The notes beneath the pieces were generated by a model. The model saw only the letters and a program-made list of their open reading frames with translations, did not search any database and was not told the origin of the DNA. A stretch of 64,000 bases of DNA from an uncultured Planctomycetota bacterium. GTDB lineage: Bacteria > Planctomycetota > Planctomycetia > Isosphaerales > Isosphaeraceae. Positions 4,062 through 62,422 of this stretch are shown one piece after another. Each line of letters opens with the position of its first letter. Position 1 is the first letter of the stretch. The stretch spans positions 13,040 to 77,039 of the forward strand of contig CAWFXY010000047.1 of the NCBI GenBank assembly GCA_963819805.1, given 5' to 3'. Made by a program: the position numbers and the translations under genes.

Positions 4062-4083
4062 ATCGGGCGACTATACCGAAGCG
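3861..4083 (+). repeat. copy A of integrase 3'-end direct repeat (about 85% identical to 56841..57063), ending in 16-nt motif CGACTATACCGAAGCG (4068-4083)
   Basis: By-eye alignment runs from gacgagcacgtgccc...gcgttccaggcgttggtga... through the stop codon (4059-4061) and 22 nt beyond. Confidence 0.8.
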
Positions 4084-7901: not shown

Positions 7902-7910
7902 TGTAGCGTT

Positions 7911-8987: not shown

Positions 8988-9265
8988 AGGTCGAGGTTCT
9001 CGGCGGTGATCTCGGCGATCACGTTCTTGAGCCGCTGGAGCTCGGCCTCGCGCGTCTGCTCCTTGGCGTCGGGCCGGCCCCTCTTGTCCTCGAACACGCG
9101 GGCCGCCGAGCCGAGCAGTTGCTTCTTCCAGGCGTAGAACTGGACCGGGTTGAGCCCCTCGCGGCGGCAGAGGTCGGAGACCTCGACGTCGGGCTCCATG
9201 CCGGCCAGGACGATCCGGAGCTTCTCGGTGGCGCTCCACGTCCGCCGCTTCCCGTTCGTGCCCAT
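8966..9265 (-). CDS. IS3-family transposase OrfA (HTH)
   Basis: 99-aa ORF reading MGTNGKRRTWSATEKLRIVLAGMEPDVEVSDLCRREGLNPVQFYAWKKQLL... This is a typical OrfA helix-turn-helix plus leucine-zipper-like tail. Confidence 0.85.
   Translation of the reverse strand: MGTNGKRRTWSATEKLRIVLAGMEPDVEVSDLCRREGLNPVQFYAWKKQLLGSAARVFEDKRGRPDAKEQTREAELQRLKNVIAEITAENLDLKKGRSG
8981..8987 (-). other. programmed -1 ribosomal frameshift heptamer A-AAA-AAG
   Basis: The minus strand reads ...gac cta aaa aag ggg..., so the A6G run is in phase X-XXY-YYZ with OrfA. It lies 5 codons before the OrfA stop, and the OrfB frame is open from here. Confidence 0.75.
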
Positions 9266-9353
9266 CGCTTATCCTCCAGGTCGTCATCATCGTACCCCTG
9301 GAGGAGGCTGATCTCTAACCAAGGCTCTGTGCCATTTGGGCTGACACACTACA

Positions 9354-30634: not shown

Positions 30635-31177
30635 GGCGAATGTCAGCGGGCGCCCGGTTGGGCGGGGCTGTCGGGGACCCCCACGTCGCGCGGCCCGCGA
30701 GGCGAGCCGCGGACCCGCGGGCGAGACGGACTTACGACAGTTTAATCGGAAGTCGATCGGGGGGTCCAAACGATTCGCCGTCGCGGACATCGATGGGCGT
30801 TGCCTTCGGCCGGTTAATCGGACAGACCCGTCGTGTCGGAGCCGGCACAGCGAACGGGCCCCTCGATGGGTGGAAAGCGTGCGCATTGTGCGCCTTCTTC
30901 AAGGCGATCGTGACCCTCCTGCAGGCGGCCGCGTTCTCGGTCTCGTGCGAGGGAGCGACATCGAGTATCCGCGCTTCCGGAGGCAGATCGCCGACGTCGG
31001 GTGATGCGGCCGACGACCCCTACGCTTCTCAGATCGCGCGCATCGTCACGACGATGATGCCACGGAAGGATGCGTCCGACCGAGATGGGCTGAACACACA
31101 GGCGCTGGCAGGCCGGGATGTGACGCTGTAAACTCCCATCTGGCGCCGATCATTCCGGTTTCATCGAGATCGAAGCG

Positions 31178-43859: not shown

Positions 43860-43965
43860 TAGCGGATGACATCCGGGCGATGGCCACGAAGCTGGCGAGG
43901 GCGACGGCGGCGACCATGACCATCACCGTCAGCGGCCGCCGCATGGCGAAGACGATCGGGTTCAT
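43860..43965 (-). pseudogene. RND efflux permease, N-terminal stub only (about 35 codons)
   Basis: ATG 43965 opens MNPIVFAMRRPLTVMVMVAAVALASFVAIARM, the canonical AcrB-family N-terminus. Homology is then lost around 43850 and the frame runs into repeat copy 2. Confidence 0.6.
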
Positions 43966-44027
43966 TGGGCCGGTCCCTCGGGTCACGCCCGGAGCTGAGA
44001 GCGATACGTCAGGGCGAACGCGGAAAG

Positions 44028-44579
44028 TCAGAGCGGCCAGTTGGCCTTGGGGTCGAAGTTCATGACGCGGGTCGCGGGCTCGGCCGGCACCTGCGGCCTG
44101 AGATACGGCTTGTCCGCCGTCTTGTGGCACGAGTAGCAGACCGTGAGGCTGTCCTTGTAGAGCCGCTCGAAGCCGGCCCGGTCCTTGCCGTCGATGACCT
44201 GCTTGAGCTGTGCGAGCTGGCTGTTCTCGAAGGCTCCGAGGATGTTCGTGAGGTTGATCTCGCGGCCCTGGTTGTCCTTGCGGATCGGTATGCGTCGGAC
44301 CGCCCAATGGAGGTGCGACTTGGTCTCCCCCAGGTAGAAGTCGGCGAGCGGCCAGTTCTCGGCCCGACCGGCGAACCAGAGGTTCGTGAAGTGCTCGCCG
44401 ACGTCGGCCATGATGTGCGCCTGGTCCGGGATGAGCCCCTCCAGCGCCTTGATGCGTGCCTCCATCTCTTCCCGGCCGGTCTGCGACGGGCCGGCGGCGG
44501 GGGCCACCCGGTCACATCCGGCGGAGGCGGCCGTGAGGAAGGAAATACTCATGATCATCACTGCATGTCGTCGCGTCAT
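44028..44579 (-). CDS. lipoprotein with C-terminal CxxCH (class II / four-helix-bundle cytochrome c-like, tentative)
   Basis: 183-aa intact ORF. The lipobox is LTAASAGC and a single heme motif, CYSCH, lies near the C-terminus. The start overlaps the PadR stop. Confidence 0.6.
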   Translation of the reverse strand: MTRRHAVMIMSISFLTAASAGCDRVAPAAGPSQTGREEMEARIKALEGLIPDQAHIMADVGEHFTNLWFAGRAENWPLADFYLGETKSHLHWAVRRIPIRKDNQGREINLTNILGAFENSQLAQLKQVIDGKDRAGFERLYKDSLTVCYSCHKTADKPYLRPQVPAEPATRVMNFDPKANWPL

Positions 44580-44950
44580 CGTGGTCCCCTTGAGCGGGTT
44601 TTCTTCTCCCAGTCGTCCGGGTCCTCGCCGCGGGATTCGGACCGGATCGAAGACGTCGGCGGGTCGTCGTGGAGCACTTCCTTGATCAGCTCGCGGAGCT
44701 TCGCCTTGGCCTGCTCCAACGCACGGCCCCCTTCGACGGTGGCCCGGTAATACTTCCGTTGCTTCCCGCCCACGACCACGGTGTGGGACGTGAGGTAGCC
44801 CGCCTCTTCGAGCCTCTGGAGCATCGGGTAGAGGGTGCCAGGCCCGACGTCGTAGCCGTGCCGGCGGAGTTCCACCATCATCTCGACGCCGAAGACGTCC
44901 TCGCTGGTCGCGTGATAGAGGATGTGCATCCGCACAAACCCGCCGTTCAC
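44576..44950 (-). CDS. PadR-family transcriptional regulator
   Basis: 124-aa ORF with the winged-helix signature GPGTLYPMLQRLEEAGYLTS...KRKYYRAT. Confidence 0.85.
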   Translation of the reverse strand: MNGGFVRMHILYHATSEDVFGVEMMVELRRHGYDVGPGTLYPMLQRLEEAGYLTSHTVVVGGKQRKYYRATVEGGRALEQAKAKLRELIKEVLHDDPPTSSIRSESRGEDPDDWEKKTRSRGPR

Positions 44951-44963
44951 ACTCCGGACAGTC

Positions 44964-47900
44964 TCATCGCGGCGGCGCCGATCGCTGGCCCGTCCGGACC
45001 CAGATCGGGCTCGCCCAGGCGAGCTGGCCGTCGTCCTGGACGGCGCGGACGTAGTACCAGCTCAGGCCCGCGGGCGCGCGTCTCGTTGTCGGTCCACGCG
45101 AAGGCGACGCGGGGCGTGTTCGGCTCGGTCGAGTAGACGTAGACGAAGTCCTTGATGACGTCGACCCGCGCGATCGGCCGCGGTGCCGTGGACCATGACC
45201 TTGAGCGTGACCGGGCCCGTCGGCGGCGAACTCGTCGCCCATCAGGTGGTCGCCGCTGCGGACGTCCAGGACGATGTTGTCGGTCGCGCCGTAGCAGTGG
45301 CGGCGTCGGAAGGCGTCGAGGATCGCGCTCGCGGGTGCGCCTCCTCGGCGAGGGCGACGGCGTAGCTGATGTGCGTCGAGATGTGGTCGCTCGACGCCTG
45401 GAAGCCCAGCCGGTACTGCATCGCCAGTGCGTTCCAGACCATCCCGAGCGGCTTCCAGCCGCCGATCGCCTCGCCGGGCCGCCGCGCGACTCGCGGCGCG
45501 CCGAGGTGCTCGTAGGAGTTGCGGTGCCCCTGGTAGATCTCGACGATCGGCTCGTACGTCGGGTTCGACGTCGCGCCAGTCGGTCCCCATGCCGGTGGCC
45601 GAGGTGTGCGAGGCGCAGATGCCGCCGAGCTCCTTCAGGTAGTCGTAGAGCATCGGCGTGTCGGCGTCGACGACGCCCGTCCTTGTCCGACCAGGCGCGG
45701 CAGGGTCCGGACGCCGCGCTTCGGGAACATCACGTTGCGGTGCCCGTGCGGGATAGCTCGACGCTCCGCTCGTAGGTGAACATGGGTGACGAAGCGCGGG
45801 GGCTGTGGTAGAGGTCGGTGGTCTTCTGGACGAGCCACCAGGTGTATTCCTTGCCGCCGCCGTTGTCGTGGTCGCCGTTGCCCATCCAGTCGAAGCCGGC
45901 GGCGTCGATGGCGTAGCGCCACATGTCCTCGAGCGCGCCGTCGCTGCCGCCGTCCATGGAGATCTCGGTGTGCCGGTGGAAGTCGCCCCGGAGGAGTCGG
46001 TAGGTCTTGCCGCCCGCCGTCGACGCGGTAGGCCCGCATCCGGGCGACGTCGGCCGGCTCGTCGGATGGACCGGCGGGGCCGCGGCCTCGGCCCGCGTCG
46101 GCGCCTCCCGCGCCTCGGCCGCACCGGCGTCGGTCCCCGCGGGGACGGGTACTGCGGCGAGGAAGAGGTCGTTGTTGGACAACGCCCGGCGGCGTCCCCG
46201 CCTGCGGTTGATATCGGGCCTGGAGCTCGGGCGTCAGGTCGACCTCGCGGTGCATCCGGCCGTCGGACGAGTAGGCGACGAGCAGCGGCCCGTCGCCGCG
46301 CGGCGACCAGGGCCGGGCGGTTGTCGAGCAGGCCGTCGCTCCGGGGCAGCGGCGTCGGCGGCCCCCAGCGTCGGGCCGGCGAGCGACGGTGACGAATTCG
46401 ACCCAGACCCCACCCACGACCTGCACGGACTTGTTGCCCCAGACGGCCTCCTGGCGGTGGCGGAACGCCAGCCAGACGCGCCCGCGGCGGATCGACCGCG
46501 ATCCGAGGGAAGCTGTTCATGGCCCGGAGCGGCGTTGGTGCGGCTGCCACAGGGTCGGGGGCGTCGAGCACCGACGTCCGTCGACGCACTGCACGCGCAC
46601 GGCGGCTTGCCGGTAGAGGGTCGAGCCCTTGCCGTCGACGAGGTTCTCGGCGTCCTTGCCCCAGTTCTCGGTCCGCTCCTCGTAGGCGACCCACGCCCGC
46701 CCGCGCGGGTCGATCGCCAGGCTCGGACGGGCCTCGTAGCGGGGCGAGCTCGCCACGAGCACCGCCGGACCGGCGCGCCGCCGGCGCCGCAACGCCGCAG
46801 CGACGACGTCGTAGTTCCCGGCGCGGTACGTGTCGAAAGCGACGACGAACCCGCCCCGCGGGTCGACGGCGAGCGACGGCGACCAGTCGTTGACGTCCGG
46901 CTCGCTGACGACCTGGCTGCCGGCGCCGGCCTCGGCCTTGCCGAGCCGGATGTCGGCCTTGCCGTCGGTCCACGACTGCCAGGCCATCCAGACGGCGCCA
47001 TCGCGGTCGACTGCCAGAGACGAGTCGGTGTCGGCGCCGGGGTCGGTCGGTGAGCCGGGCCTCGTCCGACCACGACCCGTCGGCGCCGTCGCAGCGGCGG
47101 GCGTAGAGGTCGAAGTTGCCGCCGCGGTTCTCCGACCAGACGACCACGGCACGCCCCCGGCCGTCGAGCGGCGACGGCCGGACGCCAGACGTCACGCCCT
47201 CCGCCGGTCACGTCGAGCGGCTCGCCGCGCCGTGCCGTCGACAACGCGAACGAGCTTGACCTGGTCGCCCCCGCCCGTCGGGGCGAACTCGGCGAAGTCC
47301 TTCGGCCGGGCGTCGAGCGCGGCGGTGTGCTCTCCGCCCAGCGGCGTGTGAACGACGTAGGCCACCCATGCCCCACCGTTCCCGTCCCCGACGGCGGCCG
47401 GGAAGTCCTCCTGCTCGGGCCCGGCGACGAGCGGAACGGCCGTCGCGACCCGCTGCGCCGAGGCGCGGCCGTCGAGGTACGGACGCACCTCGCCCCGCGC
47501 CAGGTCGGCGAGCCGGACCGAGAAGTTGCCCCGCTCGGTCTCGACGTCCAGGGTCGCGTCGTCGGGGGCCCTGAGCGAGACGACAACGCCGTTAGGCGTG
47601 ACGATCGCCCCGGTCGACGTCGGCCCGGTCGCCTTCTTCTGCGCGGCGGCGCCGGCCGCCTTCTTGGCCGCCGCCTTGCGGATCGTGTGGCTCGTCGCCT
47701 CCCACGAGTCGCGCCCCGTGGTCATGTCGCCCTTGCGGAACCGCCAGCCCTCGACGCCGACGACTTCACCTCTGTCGACCTTGACCCGCCCGTTCCATCG
47801 CCGCGGCGCCTCGTCGCCGACGCCGAGCAGGATCCGGACGGACGTGACCGACGGGTCGAGCGCGGGCCCCGCCGCACCCTTCCTTTCCCCGCCGTCATTC

Positions 47901-47965
47901 TGGCTGACGACGGCCGATGCCCCGATCAGTCCCACGAGCGTCACAAGGGCGACGAGCGATCGCAT
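44964..47965 (-). pseudogene. large secreted beta-propeller + PHP-like metal-hydrolase-domain protein, paralog 1; about 14 frame breaks
   Basis: The signal peptide is MRSLVALVTLVGLIGASA (ORF 47192..47965). Conserved pieces then alternate among all three frames: GRDVWRPAVAA, AVVVWSENRGGNFDLYAR, AVWMAWQSWTDGKADI, FVVAFDTYRAGNYDV, RAWVAYEERTENWGKDAEN, LRGDFHRHTEISMDGGSDGALEDMWRYAIDAAGFDWMGNGDHDNG, GICASHTSATGMGTDW, MVWNALA...QASSDHISTH, CYGATDNIVLDVRSGDHLMG and SWYYVRAVQDDGQLAWASPIWV*. Every piece has a counterpart in paralog 2. Confidence 0.75.
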
Positions 47966-48029
47966 GGCAAGGCTCCTCGACGGGGCATCTCTCTTCGAAC
48001 AGGGAGGGGTCGGGACGACCGGCTCGGGC

Positions 48030-48602
48030 TCATGGCACGTCGGGGTCGTCGCCGGTCTCGACCGTCAGGCCGACCGCCGGCGGCGGCACCTGGACCGGCA
48101 CCCCCTCGGGCGCGATGTAACTGGCCGGGGCCCCGAACCTCGCCGCCGGCTGAAGGCTCATGACCGTCGCAACGTCGGCGACGCGCCAGCCGTCGGCCGT
48201 CTTCTCGACGCGGTACGTCTGGCGCTCGTTGCGGTCGGGGTAGACGGTCTCGACCGCGACCCGCGCGGCGGCATCGCCGTCGGGCTCGGCGGCGAAGATG
48301 GCGTGGCTCTTGCGGGCCGCGGCCGCGCGCTTCAGGTCGTCGGCGAACGTCGACCGCCCCCGCCCTTCGACCTCGCGCTCGAGCCTCGCCATCAAGGGGC
48401 CGGTGAACGCCGCCAGGTAGGCCGCCACGTCCCCCTCCTGGCCGCTTCGAAGCAGACTCCGCACCGTCTCCTCCGCCGGGCTCGCCCCGATCTCGGTGCC
48501 TTGCGGTGCGGGCGTATCGATCTTGACGCCGGTCCGCGACCCCATGACGAGCATCGCCACCAGGATCAGCGCCGTCAGGATGCCCGCGACTATCGGTCTC
48601 AT
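48030..48602 (-). CDS. membrane-anchored hypothetical protein (190 aa)
   Basis: Intact ORF with an N-terminal TM segment, MRPIVAGILTALILVAMLVMG, and a protein-like remainder. Confidence 0.65.
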   Translation of the reverse strand: MRPIVAGILTALILVAMLVMGSRTGVKIDTPAPQGTEIGASPAEETVRSLLRSGQEGDVAAYLAAFTGPLMARLEREVEGRGRSTFADDLKRAAAARKSHAIFAAEPDGDAAARVAVETVYPDRNERQTYRVEKTADGWRVADVATVMSLQPAARFGAPASYIAPEGVPVQVPPPAVGLTVETGDDPDVP

Positions 48603-48652
48603 CGTTCCGACTCACACCGCCGATGGATGCCCCACGAAAGGGCCGCGCCGGC

Positions 48653-49567
48653 TCACTTCTCCCCGATGACGCTCAGGTCGACATCCCGCCCCGGCGCGAC
48701 GACGACCTTGCGCGAGAACTTCGGCAGGAGCTCGGCGACCGCCTCGAGGTAGAGGCGTTGCCGGGCCGCGTAAGGGTTCTTGCGCGACCTCGGCGGCGAG
48801 CCTGGCGAAGCGGTCGGCCTCGCCCCGGGCCGTCTGCACGAGGAGTTCGTGGCGGGCCGCGGCGCGGTCGGCGGTCTCGCGGGCGAGGCCGCGGGCGTCG
48901 GCCAGGGCGCGGTCGTGGTACTCCTCGGCACGGGTCACGGCCTGTCGGCGGTCGCTCCGGGCCCGGGCCACGTCGGCGAACGCCGGCGCCACCAGGGCCG
49001 GCGGCGCGACCCGGACCAGGCGAACGGCCCGCACGGAGATGCCCAGGCCCTGTGCGTCGGCCCCCGCCTGGATCTCGCGCCGTATCCGCTCGGCGACCTC
49101 GGCGCGGCCCGCGGTCAACGCGTCGTCGATCGCCCGGCCCGCCAGGGCCGACGCCAGCGCCGACTCGCCCAGCGCCTCGATCGCCGCGTCGGCCGAGCGG
49201 GACGCGAACAGGTAATCGACCGGGCGGACCACACGGAACTGGATCTGCGCCTGCGCGGCCACCAGGTTCAGGTCGCCCGTGAGGAAGTCGTCGGCGACCG
49301 GGTCGGGCGACCGGCTGAGCGGAGCGGCGTCCGGACCCGCGCACGCCGACGGTCACCGTCCGCGCCTGCTCGCGGGCCACGCGGTCGACCCGGTCGAGGC
49401 CCCGGGGCAAGCCCCAGTGCAGCCCCGGCGCCCAGGGCTCGCCGACGACCGCGCCGAACCGGCGGACGACCCCGACCTCGTCCTGCTGGATCACCGTGAG
49501 TCCCGTGGCTAGGTAGCCGGCCAGCCCCGACCGCGACGACCGCCCACACGACGCGACGGACGCTCAT
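48653..49567 (-). pseudogene. SPFH/band-7 (HflK-like) protein 3, about 3 frame breaks
   Basis: ATG 49567 opens MSVRRVVWAVVAVGAG, continuing as VIQQDEVGVVRRFGAVVGEPWAPGLHWGLP, then LNLVAAQAQIQFRVVRPVDYLF...ISVRAVRLVRVAPP...AFADVARA...RGEADRFARLAAEVA, then KNPYAARQRLYLEAVAELLPKFSRKVVV...*. Confidence 0.7.
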
Positions 49568-50555
49568 GGTCGTCCCCCTTCGACCGGCGACGCGCTGACG
49601 CGCGACCCGACGCCCGACCGGGACGCGGGCGAGCCGGAAGGCGCGGCCACCGGCGAGCCGGCCGGGGGCGTTGATTCGGGGACGCCCTGCGGTAAGCAGC
49701 CTCAGGAACGGGCTGTCGGCCGAGAGGACGAGGGTTGTCCTGGCGTCGAGCGCGGCGCGGTAGGTCTCGAGCGTCTTGAGGAACTGGTAGAAGGCGGGGT
49801 CGGCGGCGTGCGCGTCGTTGGCGATCCGTGCGGCCTGGGCCTCGCCCTCGCCGACGAGCCGGGCGGCGTCGGCCTCGGCTTCGGCGAGGGTCCGGGCCCG
49901 CTCAAGGTCGGCGGCGCTGCGGATCGTCCGCGCCTGGCTCTCGCCCTCGGCCCGCGTCGCCGCCGCCACGCGCCTCCGCTCGCTGCGGATCTGCTCGAAG
50001 ACGGCCGAGCGGACCTCCTCCGGGTAATTCAGCCGCCGCAGCCGGACGTCGACGACCTCCAGGCCGTATTCCTTGCTCGCCTGGTCGGCGATCCGGCCGG
50101 TGGCGCCCGTCATCATCGCGTCGAGCGCCGAGGCGTCGCCCACGCGGATCAGGTCCGTCAGGTCGTGCGCCGACCAGCTCCGCCGCGAGCACCGAGGCGG
50201 CCATGTCCTCGAGCCGGGCCGAGGCGTCGGGCAGGGTGCGGACGGAGCGGAGGAACCGCTCGACATCGGCGATCTTCCAGCTCACGTACCAGGCGACCTC
50301 CAGGTTCTTCTTGTCCTTCGTGAGCATCTCCCGCGGCGGCGGCGCGTCGAGCTGGAGCCGGCGGTCGAACCCACGCCGCGCTCTGCTAGGGCCACTTCCA
50401 GTGCAGCCCGGGCTCCTCGATCAGCCGGACCGGCCGGCCGAACTCGGTGACGTAGACCGTCTCCGTCTGGTCGACACGCGACGGCCGAGCAGCGCGACGG
50501 CCAGCGCGGCGAACAGGCCAACGGATGCGAGGGCGAGGCGGATTCGTTTTCTCAT
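49564..50555 (-). pseudogene. SPFH/band-7 (HflC-like) protein 2, several frame breaks
   Basis: ATG 50555 opens MRKRIRLALASVGLFAALAVALLG, continuing as VDQTETVYVTEFGRPVRLIEEPGLHWKWP, then MLTKDKKNLEVAWYVSWKIAD, then EYGLEVVDVRLRRLNYPEEVRSAVFEQIRSERRRVA...AFYQFLKTLETY. The inferred stop overlaps the next ATG (ATGA at 49567-49564). Confidence 0.7.
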
Positions 50556-50571
50556 GAGATGTCCCGGCCCT

Positions 50572-51637
50572 TCAATCATCGGGCTCCATCAGGGCACGCG
50601 CGGGCATCGCCGGCGCCCCGGGCTTCGCTGGCCCGAGGCCCTCGACGTCGCCCAGCCAGACATGCCGCCGGCCGCCGGCCTTCGGGTCGAGGATGAGCTT
50701 GGGGCGGCCGGCGTAGGCGGCGGCGAAGGTGTCCCAAAGCAGGCGGAATTCGGTCAGGTCGGCCCGCGCGGCGTGGGCCGAGGCGCGGGCGAGGAAGGCG
50801 CGGCGGTCTCCCTCGGCGCGGCTCGCGAGCGGTGTGCCCGCGTGCTGTGGCGGCATCGCGCCTGGCCTGCGCCTCGGACCAGCCCGACCAGTGTTGTTCG
50901 GCGGAGTACGCCTCGGCCTCGTTGCGGTAGCGGGCCGCATCGGAGACGGCCGCGGAGACGTCGCGGTAGGCCGGCACGACCTCGCGCGGCGGGTGGGCGT
51001 CGGTCACACGGACCCGATCGACGGCGACGCCCAGCCCAGTCTCCGCCAGCCGTCGGCGGAGCCTCGCCTCGACGTCGGTCTCGAACCGACGCCGGCCCGC
51101 CGCCAGGATGTCTTCGAGCGGCGTCCGGCCGACCGCCTCGCGGAACGCCCCTTCGGCCGCCGCCCCGACCGACGCATCGACCGACGCCACCCCGAAGACG
51201 AGCGCCGCCGCCCCCTCCTCGGTCAGCCGGTACTCGACCACGCCGGCCAGCTCGACGAGGTTCTCGTCGCCGGTGAAGAACAGCGCCGACTCGTCGCGCG
51301 CGGCCCCATGCGTCGCGCTCCAGGCCACCGGCCCCCGCCCGCCGGCCGTCGGTGACGGCCCGACCCGCGCGAGGCGGACCGCGTCGGGCTCGACCTTCGT
51401 CACCCTCTCCACCGGCGCCGGCCATCGGACGTGAAGCCCCGGCCCCAACCGGGTCGGCACGAGACGGCCGAAACGCTGGAGCAGGCCGATCTCGCCCGGC
51501 CCGACGAGGGTGATGCCGGACGCCGCGTAGAGACCGACCGACGCCACCACCAACGTCCGCGTCAGGCCCCGCCAGTGGTTCCACGCCCAGTCGAACCCGG
51601 CCGACGGGCGGCACGAGCGGCAATACGTGAGCGACAC
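50572..51637 (-). pseudogene. SPFH/band-7 (HflK-like) protein 1, one frame break
   Basis: ORF 50576..51637 carries the TM segment LTRTLVVASVGLYAASGI, GLLQRFGRLV...GLHVRWPAPVERV and VRVTDAHPPREVVPAYRDVSAA...RNEAEAY. A break at ~50860-50880 leads into the frame of ORF 50572..50940 (...DRRAFLARASAHAARADLTEFRLLWDTFAAAY...*). Confidence 0.7.
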
Positions 51638-53698
51638 GCCCCGAGGCGCGGACGACGCCCAACTGCCCCCATCGCTCGAATCCGAGCAGGCGGATCGCGT
51701 TGAGCAGGACGAGCAGCGAGCCGACCTGGTGCATGATCGCCGCGGCGACCGGGCCGAGGACTCGCAGGCCGGCCAGGACGACGGCCAGCCCGTTCAGCCC
51801 GAAGGCGAAGAGGAGGATGTTCTGGCGGATCACGCGCACCGTCTGCCGCGCCAGGCGGATCGCCTCGGGCAGCGGTTCGAGCGGGTCGCCCATCAGGACG
51901 ACCGAGCCGGCCTCGGCGGCGATGTCGACGCCGACGCCGCCGAGCGCCAGGCCGACGTCGGCCGTCGCCAGCGCCGGGGCGTCGTTGATGCCGTCGCCGA
52001 TCATCGCGACGACGCGCCCCTCGGCCTGCCGCCGCGCGATCCACTCGGCCTTCCCGGCCGGGGTCAGCTCGGCCTCGACCTGCTTGATGTGGACCTTCTT
52101 CGCCACGGCCCGCGCCGGGGCGGGGCGGTCGCCGGTCAGGATCGTCAGGTCCTTGAGGCCGAGATGTTTCAGGTCGTGGATGACGTCGTGCGCCTCGGCG
52201 CGGACCCGGTCGCGCGCCCCGATCGCCCCGACGATGCGCTCCGTCCATCGGCGACGAGCAGGGCCGTCTGGCCCGAGTCGTCGAGCGCCCTGCAGAGCCG
52301 ACTCGACCTCGGCCGCGACCTCCAGCCCCTGCTCGCGGACGAGCCGCAGGTTGCCGACGAGGACACGGACGGCCGCCGCCGTCGCGGAGCATGGCCCGGA
52401 CCCCCGCGCCGGGCTGGGCCTGGAAGTCGTCGACGTCGGCGAGCGTCGAGCCCGCGCGACCGCGCCTCGGCCACGAGCAGCGGCGCCAGGGGGTGCTCGC
52501 TCGGCTCGCTCGGCCGACGGCGGCGAGCCAGAGGACGCTCGTCGGCGTCCGCGCCGTCGAACGCGAGGACGTCGCCGATCTCGGGCCGCCCCTCGGTCAG
52601 CGTCCCGGTCTTGTCGAAGGCGAGCGCGTCGACCCGCGCCAGCCGCTCGAGCGCCGCCCCTCCCTTGACCAGGACCCCGCGCCGGGCCAGCCGCGCCGTC
52701 GCGGCGAGCACGGCCGCGGGCGTCGCCAGGATCAGGGCGCACGGGCAGGCGACCACCAGCACGGCCAGGGTCGGCATCAGGTCGATCGCCGGCGCCACGC
52801 CCGTCGCGACACCAGGCCACAGAGCCGGGCCGCGTTGGTGCCGAGGAAGACGACGGCCGCGGCCGTCGAGGACGGCCGGCAGGAACATCCGCGCGTAGCG
52901 GTCGGCCGTCCGCTCCAGCGGCGACTTGTTCCGCTGCGCCTCGGCCAGCAGGCGGATCACCTGGCCCAGCGTCGTCTCCGTCCCGACCTTCTCGGCCCGG
53001 ACCTCCAGCCGGCCGAACTGGTTGACCGTGCCGGTGAAGACCGGGTCGCCCTCGCCCTTGTCGACCGGCAGGCCCTCGCCGGTCAGCACGCTCTGGTCGA
53101 CGGCCGACCGCCCGGCGACGACCGTCCCGTCGGCCGCGATCCGCTCGCCGGGCCGGACGACCAGGCGGTCGCCCGACGCGCGAGCGCATCGGCCGCGATC
53201 TCGACCTCCTCGTCGCCCCGGATCACCCGCGCCGTTCTCGGCCGGTACTCCAGGAGCCCTCTGGATCGACCGCTGCGCCCGCTCGAAGGTGAACGCCTCC
53301 AGGCACTCGCCGACCAGCGCGATGAAGACGACCTCGGCCGCGACGAAGTACTCGCCCATCAGGCCAGCCGCGATGCACGCGACGGCCAGCGCGATGTCGG
53401 CGCCGACCCGTCCCTCGAGCAGAGCCGCCAGCGCCAGGTAGACCACCCGCCCGCCGCCGATCACCGCCGCGATCAGCGAGAGCGAGACGCCGAACGGCCT
53501 CCGGTACGCCTCGATCCCCGCGAGGCCCAGCGCCAGGTCGAGACCGAGCAACAGCCCCACGACCACCGTCGTCGCCACGAGCGCCCGCAGCTCGGCCGCG
53601 TGGTCGTGATCGCGATGGCGGTCGTGGTGGTGATCGTGGTGGTGATGGTCGTAGGTGTAGCCCGCGGCCATCAACCCCGGCTGGAATTCCCGGTGCAC
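51638..53698 (-). pseudogene. heavy-metal P1B-type ATPase with His-rich N-terminus, at least 6 frame breaks; 3' end not resolved
   Basis: ATG 53698 is followed by YDHHHHDHHHDRHRDHDH. Family motifs are TGEGLPV, the CPC motif VVACPCALILATP, DKTGTLT, MIGDGINDAPALA and VRVIRQNILLFAFGLN. Two pairs of compensating breaks lie at ~53180-53260 and ~52810-52870, with further breaks between 52500 and 52170. Confidence 0.8.
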
Positions 53699-53711
53699 GT
53701 CGGGGCGTCCC

Positions 53712-56688
53712 TCACTCCTCGTACGTCACCCAGATCGGCGAACCCCACGCGAGGTTGCCGTCGGTCTGCTCGACGCGGACGTAATAGTAGTGCGACTCGC
53801 CCGGCTTCGCGTCGTCGTCGGTGTAGCGGAAGGTCACGTCGCGGGCGTTCGGCTCGGTGGAAAGGACGTACTTGTTGTCGCGGATGACGTGGAGCCTCGC
53901 CACCGGGGCGGTCCCCTTGACGACGACCTCGAAGGCCGGGCCTCTCCTGTCGTGGCGAACGCGTCGCCCATGAGGTGGTCGCCCGAGCGGACGTCGAGCA
54001 GGATGTTGTCGGTCGCCGCGTAGCAATGACGCTTCTTGAAGGCGTCGATCAGGGCCGGGCGCGAGGTGTCCTCGGCGTAGAGGATCGCGTAGCTCAGGTG
54101 GGTGCTGACGTGGTCGCTGCTGCTCTCGAACCCGAGATGGTAGCCCTTCTCGAGCGCGTTCCAGACGAAGCCCGTCGGGCTGGTAGCCGCCGATCTGCGT
54201 CGCCTCGGTGGCGGACCTCGGGGCGCCCGAGGTGCTCGTAGTTGTGGCGGTGCCCCTGGTAGATCTCCACCACGGGCTCGACCTCCGGGTCGTTGTCGCG
54301 CCAGTCGGTCCCCATGTCGGTGGCCGAGGTGTGCGAGGCGCAGATCCCGCCGAAGTGCTTCAGGTAGGCGTAGAGCAGCTTCGTGTCGGGCGTGCCCGCC
54401 CTCGAGCGTTCCCGGCAGGCCGCCGCGCGGCAGCGGCCGGATGCCGCGCCTCGGCATCATCACGTTGCGGTGGCCGTTGGGATACACAACGCTCCGCTCG
54501 TAGGTCTGCGCCGCGACGAACCTGGGCGGGTTGAGGTGCAAGTCGGTCATTCTTCTGGATGATCCACCACATGTACTCGAATCCGAACCCGTTGTCGTGG
54601 TCGCCGTTGCCCATCCAGTCGTGGTCCGCGGCGTCGAGCGCGTACCGCCAGGTGTCCTCGAGCAGACCGTCCTGGTCGCTGTGCGAGCTGATCTCGGTGT
54701 GGCGGTGGAACTCCCCGCGCAGGGGCCGCAGGGTCTTCCCGCCGATCGCGACACGGTAGTCGCGGATCGTCCTGATGTCGGACGCTTCCTCCGGGTGGAC
54801 TGCGGCGAGCGTCGGCGCGGGGGCGGGCGGGTCGTCGGCGAGCCTCGGGGTGGTCGACGCGGCCGACGTCGCCGCGAGCCGCACGGCGTAGAGGTCGTCC
54901 TCGACGCGCGTGTTGGCGTTCTGCCGGTGGTCGGTGCTGTAGACGGCCAGCAGGTCGTCGCCGACGGCTGCAAGGGCGGGCCGGTTGTCGATGAGGTTCG
55001 CCGAGCTGGCGAGCGTCTGCGGCGCCGACCAGGACTCGCCGTCTGAATGCCAGGGCCGACCCGACCCAGACCTCGCCCTGACCGCCGGGTAGGGGGTGGT
55101 GCCGCACGAGCATCCAGAGCGTCCCGTCGCCGCCGGATGCGAGCCGGGGGACGCTCTTGTTCCGGTCGGCAATCGCGCCGAACCTCGGCTCGGCGCCCGG
55201 CGCGGCGGCGAGCAGCCGGCCGCCGTCGAGGCACTTCAGCCGGACCGTCCGGTTGACGTAGAGGGCGAACCCCGAGTTCTTCGCCAAGCCGACGTTCTTG
55301 ACGCTGCCCGCGTGAGCGTAATCCTTGCCCCACTGCTCGTCGCCCTCCTCGTAGGCCACCCAGACCCGGTTCCCCCTGTCGACCGCGAGGCTCGGCCGCG
55401 CCTCGAAACGGGACGACGAGGCGACGGCGACCGGCGGCCCCGCGCGGGCGACGTCGCGGATCATCACGTCGAAGTTCCCCTTGTCGTACGTGTCCCAGGC
55501 GACGAACACGCCCCCGTGGCCGTCGGCGGCGATGGCGGGGCCCCAGTCGTCGGCCGGGCTGGCGGAGACGACCGACGCCCCGGGATGAGGCAGCTCCGGC
55601 CGCTCGGGGAGCGCGAGCGCGAGGACCTCGTAGTTGTCGCGGCGGAACGCCTGCCAGGCCAGCCAGACGCGGCCCTTCGCGTCCGTCGTGGCGACGACGT
55701 GGAAGTCCGAACCCTTCTCGGCGGTGACTTGCTTCGGTTCAGACCACGACCCCGAGGCCGCGCCGGGGCCGAGTGGGGTGTAGACCCGATGGAAGATCTC
55801 CCAGTCGCCGTCGACCTGCTGCGCCCAGGCGACCCAAACCCTTCCCGCGCCGTCGACCGCGACGGCCGGCCGCCAGACGTCGAGCCCGGTCTCCGTCACG
55901 TCCACGCCGGGTGACCAGGTGGTCCCGTCGAAGGCACGGAGCCGAATGCGATCGCCGTGCTTCGTGGGGACGAGCGAGTCGAACTCCTTCCTCGACCCGG
56001 CCTTGGTCAGGTGGGGGACCTCGGGCGTGTACTCGACGTAGGCGAGCCAGACGGTGCCGTCCGGCGCGCGGGCGGCGGACGGGAAGTCGTCCTCGGTCCC
56101 GCGGCCGGTCAGGCGGACGGCGGCCTCCTCGCGCTCGGCGGCCGCCCGGCCGTCGAGGAACATGGTCCGCTCGCCCCGCGTCAGGTCCGCCGGCCTGAAG
56201 GAGAAGGTTCCCTCCCCCGTGCGGACGGTGACCGTGGCCGTCTCGGGGGCGTCGAGGTTGGCGCGGACCACGGACGGGGCCGGCGCGGCATTGGCCTTCT
56301 GCTGCGCTTTCTTCTTGTTGGCCGCGGCTTTCTTCTTGTTGGTCGCGGCCTGCTTCTTGGCCTCGACGCGGAACCGGCCGCCCTCGATCGCGGCGTCGAC
56401 GGCGGCAGGCGCGACCTCGAGGCCGAGCACGCGCCCCTCGGAGACGGTGACCTCGCCGTCCCAGGCGGTCCGCCGCGCGTCCCCCAGGCCGAGCGTGATC
56501 GCCAGGCCGATCAGCCCGCGCGGCATCGCGACCGAAGCACCTCGCGCAGGACCCGACCCGACCCCGACCGTCGCGGGGGCGGCCTGGTCCTGCTCGTGCG
56601 ATGCGCTCGACACGACCTCTACCACCGCCAGCCCCAGCGCCGCCGCGAGGGCTGTCGCGGCCCGGGCACTCCGCGACCGGATAGCCAT
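53712..56688 (-). pseudogene. large secreted beta-propeller + PHP-like metal-hydrolase-domain protein, paralog 2; 6 frame breaks
   Basis: ORF 54547..56688 is coherent down to ...GEVWVGSALAF. Breaks follow at ~55043-55047 (DGESWSAPQTL...LRGEFHRHTEISSHSDQDGLLEDTWRYALDAADHDWMGNGDHDNG...WWIIQK) and ~54545-54555 (TDLHLNPPRF...NGHRNVMMP). Further breaks lie at ~54395 (TKLLYAYLKHFGGICASHTSATDMGTDW...EIYQGHRHNYEHLG), ~54240, ~54180 (FVWNALEKGYHLGFESSSDHVSTH...CYAATDNILLDVRSGDHLMG) and ~53945 (FEVVVKGTAPVARLHVIRDN...HYYYVRVEQTDGNLAWGSPIWVTYEE*). Confidence 0.8.
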
Positions 56689-56840
56689 GATCGAGACCCC
56701 TTCGTCATGACTCGACCCGTCATCACCTGTGCGAATAACGGGTCACAATAACCGGCCCTCGCGGCCGGAGCAAACTTCTTATCGGCAGCCGGGGCTGGTA
56801 GTCTCTCGGAGTGCGCAGGCCCGGCCCCGACGGGAGCGCG

Positions 56841-57380: not shown

Positions 57381-57974
57381 TTGCGATCGCCCTATCGGCG
57401 GACCCGCTTGCACACGACGCCCGTCAGCCTGCTGGAGCAGTTGCGCCGACCCGGGGATCAGGCCTCTTGGGTGCGGTTCGTCCGCCTCTATTACCCGCTG
57501 ATCTACGACTGGGCGCGGCGTGCGGGGGCCCGTCCGGAGGACGCGGCCGACCTCGTCCAGGACGTGCTGACGGTCCTCATCCGCAAGACTGCCGGAGTTC
57601 GAGTACGACTCGTCGAAGACCTTCCGCGGCTGGCTGCGCACGGTCACGCTCAACGCCTGGCGGCGGCAGCGCCGCACGCCGCGCCTTCCCGATCGAGGCG
57701 ATCGACCTCAGGTGAGGTCGACGGGGAGGACGACCCGCCGGGCCGCTGGTTCGAGGAGGACGAGTACCGGCGGTTGCTGGCCTTCCGCGCCCTCCAGGTG
57801 ATGAAGGCCGATTTCCAGCCGGCCACCTGGCGCGCCTGCTGGGAGAACGTCGTCGAAGGCCGGCCGGCCGCCGAGGTCGCGTGCGAGCTGGGTATCACCG
57901 TCAACGCGGTCTACCTGGCCAAGTCGCGGGTCCTCCGCCGCCTCCACCAGGAGCTGGACGGGTTCCTGGACTGA
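57381..57974 (+). pseudogene. ECF-type sigma-70 family factor, two compensating frame breaks
   Basis: The gene opens LLEQLRRPGDQASWVRFVRLYYPLIYDWARRAG..PEDAADLVQDVLTVLIRK. A break at ~57595-57600 leads to LPEFEYDSSKTFRGWLRTVTLNAWRRQRR. A break at ~57680-57700 returns to the original frame: ...EDEYRRLLAFRALQVMKADF...ELGITVNAVYLAKSRVLRRLHQEL*. Confidence 0.75.
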
Positions 57975-58171: not shown

Positions 58172-59313
58172 ATGAGGAAGCAGCACGTTCGATGGGCGAC
58201 CTCTGAGACGTCCCCCGGTAACGCCCGCCGGGGTCGGCGGTGGTCGCAGTGGGCTGGCCTGGCGCTGGCCTGGGCCTTGTCGGTCACGTGGTCCGGCGAC
58301 GCCCGCGCCGGATTTCTCGTCTCCAACATCGCCGACCTTAGCAACGGTACGGTGAGCCAGGTAGGCGACGGCGGCGGCACGGCGACCCCGTTCGCCACAC
58401 GGGTTCAGCAACCCGTTCGGCCTGGCGCTGGACACCGCCGGCAACCTCTACGTCAGCAACCAGGGCAACAACACGATCAGCGTTGTGGGGCCCGGCGGCG
58501 GCGGCGGCGACTCTGTTCGCCACCGGGTTCAGCAACCCATCCGGCCTGGCGTTCGACCACGCCGGCAACCTTTACGTCGCCAACTCCAACACCAACTCGG
58601 TGATCGAGGTGACGCCCGGCGGCGTGGAGACCACGTTCGCCACCGGGTTCTGCGCCCCGCAGGGCATCGTGTTCGACTCGGCCGGCAACCTCTACGCCGC
58701 CAACGGCCTTGGTGGCACGATCAGCAAGGTGGGGCCCGGCGGCGGCGTGGCGACCACGTTCGCCACCGGGTTCTACTCCGCCCTGTTCGGCCTGGCGATC
58801 GACGGCGCCGGCAACCTCTACGCCCGCGACGGCACCTTCACGATAGGCAAGGTGGGTCCCGGCGGCGGCGTGGCGACCACGTTCGCCTCCGGGTTCAGCG
58901 CCCCGGATGGCCTGACGTTCGACTCGGCCGGCAACCTCTACGTCGTCAACGCCGGCGACACCACGGTGAAAATGGTGGGTCCCGGCGGCGGCGTGGCGAC
59001 CACGTTCGCCACCGGGTTACGACGCCCCGAGGGCCATCCTCTTCGTCCCCGATCGTCGGCGGTCCCCGAGCCGACGTCGGCGGCGCTGATGGGCGTCGGC
59101 ATCGCGGTCGCCGCGGGCGCGGCATGGCGGAGGCGCCGGGCGGGCCCGAGGCGCCGAGGGATGACAGACGGGGGCGGCCGCCCCGCCGTCGGTGACGCCC
59201 GACGATCGCCAGGGCTCCCGAATCGAGAGCGATGCGGTCCCGTCACCCCCGGCCGGCGGGGCGGGGGTGATTTCCGAGCCCGGTCGGATCGATTAGATTG
59301 GATCGCAGGCTAG
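58172..59313 (+). pseudogene. NHL-type beta-propeller repeat protein with PEP-CTERM sorting signal, 2-3 frame breaks
   Basis: GAAGGAG precedes ATG 58172, with the signal peptide WAGLALAWALSVTWSGDARA. Six units of (A/S)TGFSxPxGLAFDxAGNLYVxN are spread over three frames, with breaks at ~58395-58400 and ~58495-58505. The C-terminal sorting signal is VPEPTSAALMGVGIAVAAGAAWRRRRA. Confidence 0.75.
58480..59020. repeat. tandem coding repeats (period about 120-126 bp) of the NHL units
   Basis: ggtgggKcccggcggcggcgtggcgaccacgttcgccWccgggtt recurs starting near 58727, 58851 and 58971, with more diverged units upstream. Confidence 0.8.
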
Positions 59314-59342
59314 CTCGGGAGGATCTGCGGGAGAGGACGATC

Positions 59343-62300
59343 ATGGTCGCCACGGCCCGATGTCCCGATCGCTCGCAACTGGAGCGATTCCTCCGCGCCG
59401 ACCTCCCCGACGAGGACGCCTCGGGGATCGAATCCCACCTGGAGTCGTGCGACTCCTGTGCCTCGTCGATCCACGAGATTTCGTCCGAAGATCCCTTGAT
59501 GAAGGGCCTCCGGGGCGGGCCGCCCGGACCGACCGAGCGGCAGGTCGACACCCTGGCGGAGCGATTCTGCCGGGGCCTGCCGGGGCTGCTCGCCCCGGGG
59601 CGGGCACTCGAGACGACGGATCTCGATCCGGATCCCGCCGACCCGGACGGCCCCGGGGCGGGGATGACCGAGGAGGTCTTCGACTTCCTCGCCCCGGCCG
59701 AGGGGCCCGGGGAGATCGGGCGGCTCGGGCCGTATCGCGTCACGGGGCCGATCGGCGCGGGGGGGATGGGGATCGTCTTCCGGGCCGAGGACCCGCTCCT
59801 GAGGAGGCCGGTCGCCCTGAAGGTGATGAAGCGGTCGCTCTCGGCCGGAGCGGAGGCGCGGCGGCGGTTCCTCCGCGAGGCCCAGGCCGTCGCCGCGCTC
59901 GACCACGACCACGTCGTCGCGATCTATCAGGCGGGCGAGGATCGCGGGGTCCTCTTCCTGGCGATGCCGCTGCTCCGGGGCGAGACCCTCGCCGACCGGC
60001 TCCGCCGCGAAGGGAGCACTGCCCCTGGCCGAGGCCCTCCGGGTCGCCCGCGAGGTCGCCGAGGGGCTGGACGTCGCGCATCGCCGCGGGCTGGTCCACC
60101 GCGACATCAAGCCGGCGAACCTCTGGCTCGAAGGAGACCGCGGCCGGGTGAAGATCCTCGACTTCGGCCTGTCGAGGAGCCTGGAGCCGGAGGCCGACCG
60201 GAGCCAGTCGGGCCAGATCGCCGGCACGCCGCACTACATGAGCCCCGAGCAGGCAAGGGGCGGCCCGATCACGCCGCTCTGCGACCTCTTCAGCCTCGGT
60301 TGCGTCCTCTATCACATGACCACGGGACGAGTTCCCTTCGACGGCCCCGACACGCTCGCGGTCCTCACGGCGCTGGCCGTGGCGACGCCCGAGCCGCCCG
60401 ATCGGCTCAACCCGGGGCTGCCACCGGTCGCCTCCGCGCTCATCACGATCGCTGCTGGCCCGCGACCCCTCGGCGTCGTCCCGGTTCGGCCCGCGCCGTG
60501 GTCGAGGCGATCGAGGCCATCGAGCGGTCGCCGAGCCCGGCCCCCGCGCCGCGACGGCGACTGACCCCGATCGGCCTGGCCCTCCTGGTCGTCCTGGGGC
60601 TCGCCGGGGCGGGTGCCGCCTTCGGCCCGCAGGTCGTCCGCATCCTCACCGATCAGGGGCAGCTCGTCATCGAGACGTCCGACCCCGAGGTCCGAGTCGA
60701 GGTCAAGCGCGGCGGGCGGTTGGTGACGAATCGTCGACCCCGCCTCGGGCCGCCAGGTCGACCTCCATGCCGGGGAATACGACCTCGAACTCTCCGAGGG
60801 GAAGGACGGCCTCCGGCTCTCGACCCGCCGATTCGTACTGGCGAGGGGGGGCGAGAGGTCGTCCGCGTGACGATGGAGCCGATCGCCCGCCGCGCCTCCC
60901 GCGAAGGAAACGCACGCCGCGCCGCCCGTCGCCGCCGCTCGACCCGCCGGAGATCGACCGCCTGACGGCCCGACTCCTCGACCGGCCGGACGACCCGGCC
61001 GCCCTCCAGGCGAGGGCCGTCGCCTACGCGAAGGCCGGCGACACGGACCGCGCCATCGCCGACTGGGACCGCGCGATCTCCATCGAGCCGACCGGGTCCC
61101 GGCTCCAGGCCCGGGGCTGGGCCCATTTCCAGAGGCGCGACACCGACCGGGCCCTGGCCGACTTCTGCGAGGCGATCCGGCTCGACCCGCGATCGGCCGG
61201 GGCGTACCGAGGCCGCGGTCGGGTCTTCCTCGACCGCCGCGAGTTCGACCGCGCCCGGGCCGACTTCGACGAGGCGATCCGCCTCGATCCGGGAGATGCC
61301 GCCGCGTACGAAGGTCCGGGCCCACACCCGGCAGGCGACCGGCGACCATCTCGGCGCGATCCCGACTGCGATTCCGCCCTCCGGCTCGACCCCGCACCTG
61401 ACGGATGCCTACTCCATCCGCGGCGCGGCCCTCACCTCGCTGGGCGAGTGGGACCGGGGCCGCGTCGACCTGGACGAGTTCATCCGCCGCGTCCCGCGCG
61501 AGCCCTGGTCCCATTTCCATCGCGCCTCGAGCCGCCAGATCCTCGGGCGATCTCGACGGGGCGGTGGCCGACTTCGACCTGGCGATCGAGCTCGACCCGG
61601 GAAACGTCCCTCTTCTACGGCCAGCGTGGGCTGGCCCTGGCGTTCGGCACGACCCCGGGCGGGCCCTGGCGGATGTCGAGCGGGCCCTCCGGTCCAGTCC
61701 CGACGACAAGGAGTATCCTCCGCCTCCGGGGCTGGATCCGGGCCCAACTGGGCGACTATGACGGGTCGTTGGCCGACTACCATCGGGCCTTCGAAGGTCG
61801 ACCCCTGGACGCGATCAAGCTGGCCGACCGGGCGTCCGTCGCGGCAATGGCGGGCCATCACAAGGATGCGGAGACGGACTTCGAAGCGGCCCTGCGACTG
61901 GACCCGTCGAGCCCCTGGATCCGCGCCCGGCGTGCCCGGTACCTCCACGCCGCGCGGGGCGATCACCAGCGGGCGGTCGCCGACTGCGACGAGGCGCTCC
62001 GGCTCAAGCCGGGGCACGCCGAAGCGTCCCTGTATCGGGGCCTCTCGTCGGTGGCCCTGGACGACTTCCGCGGCGCCGTCGCCGACTTCGACCGGGCCCT
62101 AGACCCGCACCAGGCCCGCGCGATCACGTTCCTCGGCCCGATCTCCTCCCACTACCCCGAGCTGTACCGCGCCCGGTCCGAGGCCCATCGACGGCTCGGC
62201 GACCTCGACGGTGCCTGGCCGACCTCGACGCGGCTCTCGGGCTCAACCCGGACGACGCCGAGGCCCGGGTCCGCCGCGGGCGCGTTCACGCCGCCCGGCG

Positions 62301-62422
62301 CGACTTCGCCCGAGCGATCGCCGACTTCGACCGGGCGATCGCCCTCGGTCGCCGCGATCCCGGACCTCTACCGGAACCGCGGCGACGCTGTTGGCCGACT
62401 CTCCGAGCCCGCCGGGAGGTGA
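59343..62422 (+). pseudogene. Ser/Thr kinase with N-terminal H-x3-C-x2-C motif - TM - TPR-repeat region; at least 8 frame breaks
   Basis: ATG 59343 opens MVATARCPDRSQLERFLRADLPDEDASGIESHLESCDSC. Kinase motifs are GAGGMGIVFRA and VALKVM, followed by a break at ~60005-60015 and then HRDIKPANLWL, KILDFGLSR and PHYMSPE. A later break returns to ...AVVEAIEAIE...TM LTPIGLALLVVLGLAGAGAAF. Many TPR units (AIADWDRAISIEP, ALADFCEAIRLDP, ARADFDEAIRLDP, AVADFDLAIELDP, AVADCDEALRLKP, AIADFDRAIAL) are distributed over three frames up to the stop at 62422. Confidence 0.75.

Follow-up and report, generated by a model that had tools for sequence, protein, structure and literature searches.

Cages built of the SPFH proteins HflK and HflC enclose a membrane client, FtsH, in Escherichia coli (PMC13220708). 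In Mycobacterium tuberculosis, the PacL1-CtpC 'metal efflux platforms' or 'effluxosomes' are described (PMC9374683, PMC13043812) as membrane foci in which a scaffold clusters and stabilises a P1B-type pump, and stomatin-NfeD operons are presented in the main survey of prokaryotic SPFH proteins (PMC2636767) as conserved operons in which an SPFH gene is accompanied by a dedicated membrane partner. Here we consider a stretch of 64,000 nucleotides (hereafter the window) from an uncultured Planctomycetota bacterium (assembly GCA_963819805.1, contig CAWFXY010000047.1, positions 13,040 to 77,039), in which a P1B-type heavy-metal ATPase is fused to an HflK-like SPFH domain and the fused gene is followed by an HflC-like gene and by a free HflK-like gene. 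We refer to the three SPFH proteins as Kf (fused HflK-like), C (HflC-like) and K2 (free HflK-like). The window has a GC content of about 70%, its closest protein matches are from Isosphaeraceae (Planctomycetota), and between positions 43965 and 56688 its coding signal lies entirely on the minus strand.

With the E. coli HflK/HflC-FtsH structures (PDB 7vhp, 7wi3, 9cz1/9cz2) the locus shares two kinds of single-pass SPFH subunit, periplasmic SPFH domains, a coiled coil and C-terminal cap elements, and for each of the three SPFH parts of the related Singulisphaera acidiphila locus the best PDB match is among these structures; the concept of a ring or cage around a polytopic membrane client (PMC13220708) would also be the same. 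The two systems differ in that the presumed client here is a metal exporter and not FtsH, in that a covalent fusion joins this client to one of the HflK-type subunits, and in that there are three subunit types (Kf, C and K2) instead of two. PacL1-CtpC resembles our locus in that the gene of a P1B metal-exporting ATPase lies beside the gene of a small membrane scaffold, but PacL is described there as a cytoplasmic Glu/Ala-repeat protein, not an SPFH protein, that acts independently of flotillin (PMC9374683). The mycobacterial system furthermore has neither a fusion nor a periplasmic dome and belongs to another phylum. PacL itself is a member of the DUF1490 family. In the stomatin-NfeD operons the partner is an NfeD protease or an OB-fold protein, whereas here it is a transporter, and a search of the survey for the terms 'ATPase', 'transporter' and 'fused' gave no match (PMC2636767). 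In a full-text search of the searchable literature neither this module nor any fusion of a transporter with an SPFH protein was found to have been described; what is new is an SPFH scaffold with a hard-wired client class, whereas the genes themselves were already present in public genomes.

The pump and the first SPFH region had been taken, in a first-pass annotation made from the letters of the sequence, for two separate abutting genes, but they form a single gene (50572 to 53698, minus strand). The 1,021-amino-acid (aa) protein of the closest relative aligns collinearly with the window by tblastn from 53671 to 50575, the ATPase part running into the SPFH part without an intervening stop, and intact fusions combining E1-E2_ATPase, Hydrolase and Band_7 domains are encoded at three loci of our comparison (L001, L002 and L003; 1,021-1,030 aa) and in S. 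acidiphila (L169; 1,031 aa). This comparison of neighbourhoods covers 169 related loci (L001-L169), among which L001 is the metagenomic locus closest to the window, L169 the finished genome of S. acidiphila and L168 its draft. The ATPase part of the fused gene occupies about 51640-53698 and the SPFH part, an HflK-like SPFH domain with a coiled coil, about 50572-51530. The GTG codon at 53698 is probably the true start, because it yields the N-terminus MHREF, and MHRE(F/Y/I) begins many distant fusions as well as the S. acidiphila gene. Public fragments of the fusion are labelled 'Cu+-exporting ATPase', 'HAD-IC family P-type ATPase' or 'HflK'.

All large genes of the cluster are broken in frame in the window, on which a plot of GC content at third codon positions by phase, a frame-tracing Viterbi and tblastn agree. 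Pfam searches on the raw open reading frames (ORFs) gave fragmentary matches, and we used instead proteins rebuilt with a codon-usage Viterbi that permits ±1 shifts and checked against homologues. Exact-sequence look-ups of proteins of the window itself yielded no record. One may ask whether the frameshifts are real and the cluster a set of pseudogenes, with nothing functional in this organism; the density of about 3-4 breaks per kb in 44964-56688, compared with some 0.5 per kb in other parts of the window, would agree with such decay, as would the public record, which encodes a truncated ORF of 713 aa (P0058). However, natural bacterial gene decay favours deletions and also yields stops, whereas the DNA alignment with L001 (85% identity over 11.7 kb) shows 47 one-base insertions and 3 one-base deletions, and the frame-traced translation contains zero stops within genes despite six frame changes in the upstream flanking gene (paralog 2, see below), about nine in the fused gene and 16 in the downstream flanking gene (paralog 1); the ATPase/SPFH junction of the fused gene itself has one frame break and zero stops. 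Moreover, the repaired proteins are 79-89% identical to those of L001 at full length (and 57-80% identical to those of S. acidiphila), the small genes of the stretch are intact, and breaks are also present elsewhere in the window and in the same genes of other long-read-style assemblies (L005, L006 and L010). We therefore consider decay highly improbable, and from the excess of insertions, the lack of internal stops and the similar breaks in other assemblies we infer that the frame breaks are assembly or sequencing errors; judging by the excess of insertions, the deposited contig seems to suffer from a systematic error of assembly or polishing. Errors in homopolymer runs were considered as the source and rejected, most breaks lying outside such runs. 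Frame changes were also seen at window positions 59300-62400, 28500-30650, 15070-16340 and 6970-9270. In the draft of S. acidiphila (L168) the genes of the fusion and of the second SPFH protein, as well as carB, are split into fragments, and all are intact in the finished genome (L169), an independent case of assembly error in this GC-rich region.

The repaired ATPase has the signatures of a P1B-type pump, with the motifs LTGEG, ACPCAL, DKTGT, SEHPLA and GDGINDAP, matches to both the Pfam E1-E2_ATPase and Hydrolase models, and a score of 532.7 bits against TIGR01525 (cut-off 346.25). Its best PDB match is sCoaT (7qbz; E 1.5e-107), with an alignment that spans residues 13-655 and takes in the His-rich N-terminus. 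The motifs to which the first-pass annotation had drawn attention, both in the pump (His-rich N-terminus, CPC, DKTGT and GDGINDAP) and in the flanking paralogs (GxFHRHTE, ASHTSAT and SSDH(V/I)STH), are all present. The fused SPFH part is matched by the Band_7 and HflK profiles (TIGR01933, 131.8 bits for a cut-off of 159.4), and its S. acidiphila orthologue has E. coli HflK as best PDB match (E 4e-21). The gene that follows after 16 nucleotides (nt), from the fused gene stop at 50572 to an ATG at 50555, encodes the HflC-like protein (49564 to 50555, minus strand; about 330 aa), an SPFH protein with one N-terminal transmembrane (TM) helix (residues 13-31) that scores 172.5 bits against TIGR01932 (cut-off 134.4) and is 89% identical to its L001 orthologue; the best PDB match of the S. 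acidiphila orthologue is E. coli HflC (E 1.5e-34). Its end overlaps the free HflK-like gene (48653 to 49567, minus strand; about 303 aa) in an ATGA at 49564-49567. This third SPFH protein also begins with a TM helix, is 88% identical to its L001 orthologue and reaches 157.7 bits against TIGR01933, 1.7 bits short of the cut-off of 159.4, its S. acidiphila orthologue having E. coli HflK as best PDB match (E 1.7e-29). The PDB matches of the S. acidiphila SPFH orthologues span nearly their whole length. As both the fused and the free copy score under the TIGR01933 cut-off, we call them HflK-like and not HflK.

The hydropathy of the S. acidiphila fusion displays eight pump helices, a cytoplasmic linker of about 45 residues and a ninth helix, and with eight ATPase TM helices plus one the SPFH domain is placed in the periplasm, as it is in HflK. 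The linker contains a CxxC motif (YCRSCRPS; window about 51590-51625, alignment columns about 545-560) in seven of the eight aligned sequences of Isosphaeraceae type, as well as in the window and in S. acidiphila, and more distant fusions are without it; a role in metal binding or in regulation is conceivable. A W-x3-H motif (W196 and H200, numbered on the first sequence of the alignment; 'VAWSATHG' in the window) is invariant in a loop of the SPFH domain (22 of 22 aligned fusions).

The association of exporters with the Kf-C-K2 set is conserved far beyond the closest relatives. The Kf-C-K2 order and one-to-one orthology are kept in distant ATPase modules (L006, L012 and L167; tblastn and gene calls), reciprocal best matches to Kf, C and K2 having been checked for L167 and for L166. 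The latter (801-4415), from an organism of 42% GC, carries a CDF exporter fused to the HflK-like clade, followed by HflC-like and HflK-like genes. In Verrucomicrobiales (L011, L014 and L023) and in another Planctomycetota lineage (L080) the four components are unfused, in the order K-C-K-ATPase, and PVC bacteria (Planctomycetota and Verrucomicrobiales) keep the pump with its HflK/HflC/HflK set at identities that range between 100% and about 37%. A scan of contigs with the fusion alignment was dominated by the generic P-ATPase motif G[IV]NDAPALA and gave at least five true fusions (L007-L010 and L012) and at least four unfused SPFH-ATPase clusters (L011, L014, L023 and L080).

A homologue search with the junction region listed mostly truncated gene calls and missed the identical protein of L001, and an exhaustive search of representative clusters was used instead. 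Using HMMER with the first SPFH region of the window against 1.84 billion cluster representatives, we obtained 4,336 matches, of which the best 150 (representatives at 50% identity) were classified. Among these 150 are 70 ATPase::SPFH fusions (28 full length and 42 partial), confirmed by Pfam in all eight cases tested, 23 clusters in which a Cation_efflux (CDF) exporter is fused to the SPFH domain (P0281 and P0349 among them) and about seven with an ArsP_1 permease. In these last, the ArsP_1 'predicted permease' (PF03773) stands N-terminal to the HflK-like clade (P0378, P0285, P0323, P0325 and P0331, with P0343 and P0347 partial). The presence of three unrelated exporter families on the same SPFH clade argues for a link of this clade to the activity of metal export and not to one protein family, and the fused HflK clade looks like a scaffold dedicated to metal and metalloid exporters. 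The link between pump and SPFH proteins proposed at first is therefore stronger than it had been put, being a covalent fusion, conserved across PVC bacteria and repeated with two further exporter families. The conserved unit is one of three genes, namely the pump-Kf fusion, the HflC-like C and the free HflK-like K2, to which the Isosphaeraceae modules have additionally acquired a 190-aa protein and one or two Sec-exported propeller/DUF3604 metallohydrolases. The first HflK-like ORF of the K-C-K-ATPase cluster of L011 (9104-10990; Verrucomicrobiales) is 628 aa long and has an N-terminal part of about 300 aa with about five hydrophobic segments and no Pfam match.

The explanation that we consider best, and that we believe and doubt in about equal measure, is an HflK/C-type ring or cage that carries tethered metal exporters. 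Kf, C and K2 would co-assemble into an alternating ring or vault of HflK/HflC type on the periplasmic face of the inner membrane, in which some HflK positions would bear a covalently tethered pump; the free K2 would occupy the remaining HflK positions, since a ring with twelve pumps would leave too little room for them. The outcome could be a patch of membrane, laterally segregated, in which metal exporters are held, stabilised or regulated, with metal possibly released beneath or beside the periplasmic dome. Candidate purposes of the cage are the stabilisation or clustering of exporters, their turnover under FtsH control, and a confined periplasmic space for the released metal. Stabilisation or clustering would be akin to the PacL platforms of mycobacteria (PMC9374683), and a confined space would comprise metallation of the Sec-exported proteins encoded beside the module (see below).

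Several points weigh against this explanation. The fusion, the identities of the subunits, the periplasmic side of the SPFH domain and the conservation of the trio with exporters are shown by the comparisons above; for the assembly of Kf-C-K2, its stoichiometry and its purpose we infer by analogy: co-assembly of the SPFH trio and the seat of the pump in the ring are modelled on HflK/C, and the argument on stoichiometry is purely geometric reasoning. If the frameshifts were genuine, the window's own copy would be non-functional. The nature of the pump also has to be considered. The P1B-4 subgroup, which comprises Co/Zn/Cd/Fe exporters such as sCoaT, CzcP and PfeT, has SPC in TM4 and HEGxT in TM6, and sCoaT (7qbz), which we take to be a P1B-4 exporter of Co, Zn and Cd, scores nearly the same as CopA against the window ATPase (364 and 360 bits respectively). 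Here TM4 has CPC and not the SPC of P1B-4, and TM6 has HQxGS and not HEGxT; CPC together with H-Q-x-(G/A/S)-S is the rule in nearly all fusions and is also present in the window. Set beside sCoaT itself, the pump shares the aligned His-rich N-terminus, has in TM6 a motif, H-Q-V-G-S, similar to the H-E-G-S-T of sCoaT, differs by CPC instead of SPC in TM4, and bears a C-terminal SPFH extension that is absent from sCoaT. A divalent transition metal is the most likely substrate.

A different function for the same set of proteins would be proteolytic control, in which Kf and its partners would act like HflK/C of E. coli and recruit or gate FtsH, the metal status deciding whether the tethered exporter is degraded or protected. 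Among solved structures, the FtsH modulators HflK and HflC are indeed closest to all three SPFH proteins, and FtsH degrades another P-type ATPase, MgtA. HflK/C is moreover described as both inhibiting and promoting the action of FtsH on membrane substrates (PMC13220708). However, no ftsH gene is present in any module locus examined, and a covalent tether between protease adaptor and substrate would be an unusual regulation for three different transporter families to share, so that we hold this explanation to be unlikely.

Should the ring or cage with tethered exporters be correct, it would bear on an open question, that of the roles of bacterial SPFH cages beyond FtsH gating and of how their clients are chosen. 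The natural fusion offers a defined scaffold-client pair, backed by fusions to two other types of exporter and by the unfused cluster of Verrucomicrobiales, and a type strain available in culture, Singulisphaera acidiphila DSM 18658, has an intact module (CP003364.1, about 8.975-8.984 Mb), which makes the pair amenable to purification and imaging. It would also widen the mycobacterial idea of scaffolded 'efflux platforms' to another scaffold family and another phylum.

The module is bracketed in the window by two genes that encode large secreted proteins of the same architecture, paralog 2 upstream (53712 to 56688, minus strand; start and stop mapped, about 990 aa after frame repair), the stop of which at 53712 is separated by 13 nt from the GTG of the pump at 53698, and paralog 1 downstream (44964 to 47965, minus strand; about 991 aa after frame repair). 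The two share 42% identity, and separate sets of orthologues exist for each: paralog 2 matches intact proteins of 970-1,000 aa of Isosphaeraceae and Gemmataceae with 55-83% identity and coverage up to 100%, and L001 (79% identity) and S. acidiphila (61%) each have an orthologue of paralog 1 in the corresponding place. The order of domains is a Sec-type signal peptide, an N-terminal beta-sandwich with a Lys/Ala-rich loop, a sialidase-like beta-propeller, a DUF3604-type domain and a C-terminal immunoglobulin-like domain, and the AlphaFold2 model of a homologue (P0004; pLDDT 79.7) presents accordingly a signal helix, a beta-sandwich, a beta-propeller, a domain of alternating strands and helices and an immunoglobulin-like sandwich. 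The propeller, with its repeated D-x-x-G-x-V-W-(V/L)-A-W motifs and with BNR_2 (PF13088) precomputed on a few homologues, has sialidases as top Foldseek matches (1kit, 8gn6 and others, E about 1e-10).

The domain that had been described as PHP-type on the basis of metal motifs is supported as such only indirectly, by profile matches. DUF3604 (PF12228) matches 12 of 13 family members (best E 5e-10), and CehA/McbA (NF038032) matches over its whole 315-position profile with an E-value of 2e-9, but with 37 bits for a cut-off of 80; the paralogs differ from these families by the sialidase-like propeller that precedes the matching domain. We take DUF3604 to be a member of the PHP/amidohydrolase clan. 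This C-terminal metallohydrolase domain has an invariant set of His, Asp and Glu residues positioned at strand ends, and this set, together with the alternation of strands and helices in the AlphaFold2 model, is compatible with a fold of PHP/amidohydrolase type. By contrast, the Pfam PHP model did not match the paralogs at E≤1, a PDB sequence profile search with the C-terminal domain recovered no solved relative, and Foldseek with the AlphaFold2 model of the C-terminal 595 aa listed no PHP-type structure among 50 matches, these being only partial-propeller and immunoglobulin-like ones; given the lack of a PDB sequence match and of a PHP-type Foldseek match, the PHP fold is not demonstrated. 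The family is large, with 371 matches at E≤1e-5 among the candidates scored, and among the 120 best matches listed all those with a name are hypothetical proteins; the locus provides a first functional lead for these secreted propeller/DUF3604 proteins of about 1,000 aa.

The gene order paralog, pump, SPFH genes, TM protein and paralog, the conservation of which had been set as a test of the cluster, is kept in L001, L003 and L109. In L001, L002 and L003 the fusion gene comes directly after paralog 2, and in S. acidiphila (L169) there is no upstream paralog. The linkage of paralogs and module is mainly found in Isosphaeraceae. The first-pass annotation had suggested that the pump metallates these exported proteins; in such a module the pump would export a divalent metal, perhaps under the SPFH dome, and load the flanking Sec-exported metallohydrolases, much as some P1B ATPases serve the metallation of exported enzymes. 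Paralogs stand on both sides of the module in the window and in the same three loci (L001, L003 and L109), one adjoins it in five others (L002, L005, L010, L087 and L169), and two divergent lineages (L118 and L124, about 40% identity) again show the linkage, there with paralogs in tandem on the upstream side. Furthermore, the signal peptides of the paralogs are not of the twin-arginine type, which implies that the paralogs would fold and gain their metal outside the cytoplasm, and their C-terminal domain keeps its invariant His/Asp/Glu set. However, the module is found at only two of the 18 paralog loci at least 20 kb long (flanks of about 10 kb), with five of 79 when all metagenomic loci found with a paralog are counted, and modules of Gemmatales, of Verrucomicrobiales and of others, L006, L012, L167 and L166 among them, have no paralog. 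Metallation would also leave the SPFH trio in general unexplained. The recurrence of the linkage thus stands on one side, with paralogs mostly without module and modules without paralog on the other, and we regard metallation as weakly supported and rather improbable. More tentatively than for the ring or cage with tethered exporters as such, although with somewhat less reserve than for metallation in itself, one can envisage in PVC bacteria a hitherto unrecognised class of SPFH assembly, a three-subunit Kf-C-K2 cage dedicated to metal or metalloid exporters, to which P1B, CDF and ArsP-type exporters would be covalently tethered and which would form a confined periplasmic chamber for protected efflux or, in Isosphaeraceae, for the metallation of DUF3604 proteins; the attribution of this class of cage to PVC bacteria leaves out the lineages of the CDF and ArsP fusions.

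Between the free HflK-like gene and paralog 1 lies an intact ORF of 190 aa (48030 to 48602, minus strand), the ATG of which at 48602 is 50 nt from the HflK-like stop at 48653 and which is separated by 64 nt from paralog 1. It encodes a membrane-anchored protein with one N-terminal TM helix and a periplasmic domain, and its gene follows the HflK-like gene in L001, L002, L003, L005, L010, L109 and L169, so that in its Isosphaeraceae form the cluster includes this gene as a conserved component. We found 281 homologues; among the 120 listed none has a functional name, and the organisms that are named are Isosphaeraceae, Singulisphaera or Planctomycetia. Profile searches gave weak hints only (Rv0361 C-terminus, E 0.003; MlaC, E 0.23). 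In L001 about 690 extra bases (17820-18560), with a spurious-looking ORF of 211 aa, separate the HflK-like and TM-protein genes; absent from the window, they may be an insertion.

Downstream of paralog 1 the same strand carries, after 13 nt, a PadR-family regulator (44576 to 44950; PF03551, 61.8 bits for a cut-off of 27), then, with an overlap of 4 nt, an intact ORF of 183 aa for a lipoprotein with a lipobox and a C-terminal CYSCH (44028 to 44579), for which neither Pfam nor NCBIfam gave a match, and, 62 nt further, a short N-terminal fragment, the 'MNPIVF' ORF MNPIVFAMRRPLTVMVMVAAVALASFVAIARM (43870 to 43965), which resembles the start of an RND permease. The minus strand of all named genes and the junction distances given in the first-pass annotation were reproduced from the sequence. 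That annotation had placed these three genes in the cluster, under PadR control, and a single ten-gene operon controlled by PadR, including the CxxCH lipoprotein and an RND remnant, would indeed agree with the single orientation, with the short or overlapping junctions and with the lack of a terminator-like site inside the run. Nevertheless, no homologue of PadR or of the CxxCH lipoprotein was found in the 169 related loci, closest relative included, nor in the 600 nt downstream of paralog 1 of L001, and both S. acidiphila and L005 have, next to paralog 1, a gene that runs in the other direction. As for the 'RND stub', the likeness to an RND N-terminus extends over only about 32 residues, the start of the next gene at 43449 leaves room for at most about 170 codons, and no Pfam RND-family model matched even at E≤10. 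Neither PadR control nor the membership of the lipoprotein and of the RND stub in the cluster was upheld, and we consider the ten-gene operon most improbable.

Scans of the region for promoters and terminators gave numbers of sites not above chance, Rfam searches of the window region and of six related loci yielded no metal riboswitch, and the PADLOC models of anti-phage defence matched none of the seven proteins tested. A GC-rich hairpin with a T-rich tail is located at window position 56752-56768 on the minus strand, about 65 nt upstream of the start of paralog 2, such sites occurring at chance frequency. Divergently upstream of paralog 2, the window carries an ECF sigma factor gene (57381-57974, plus strand) and a frameshifted Ser/Thr kinase-TPR gene (59298-62422, plus strand). 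ECF sigma factor and kinase-TPR genes are also present on the upstream side in L001, further off and past several unrelated genes.

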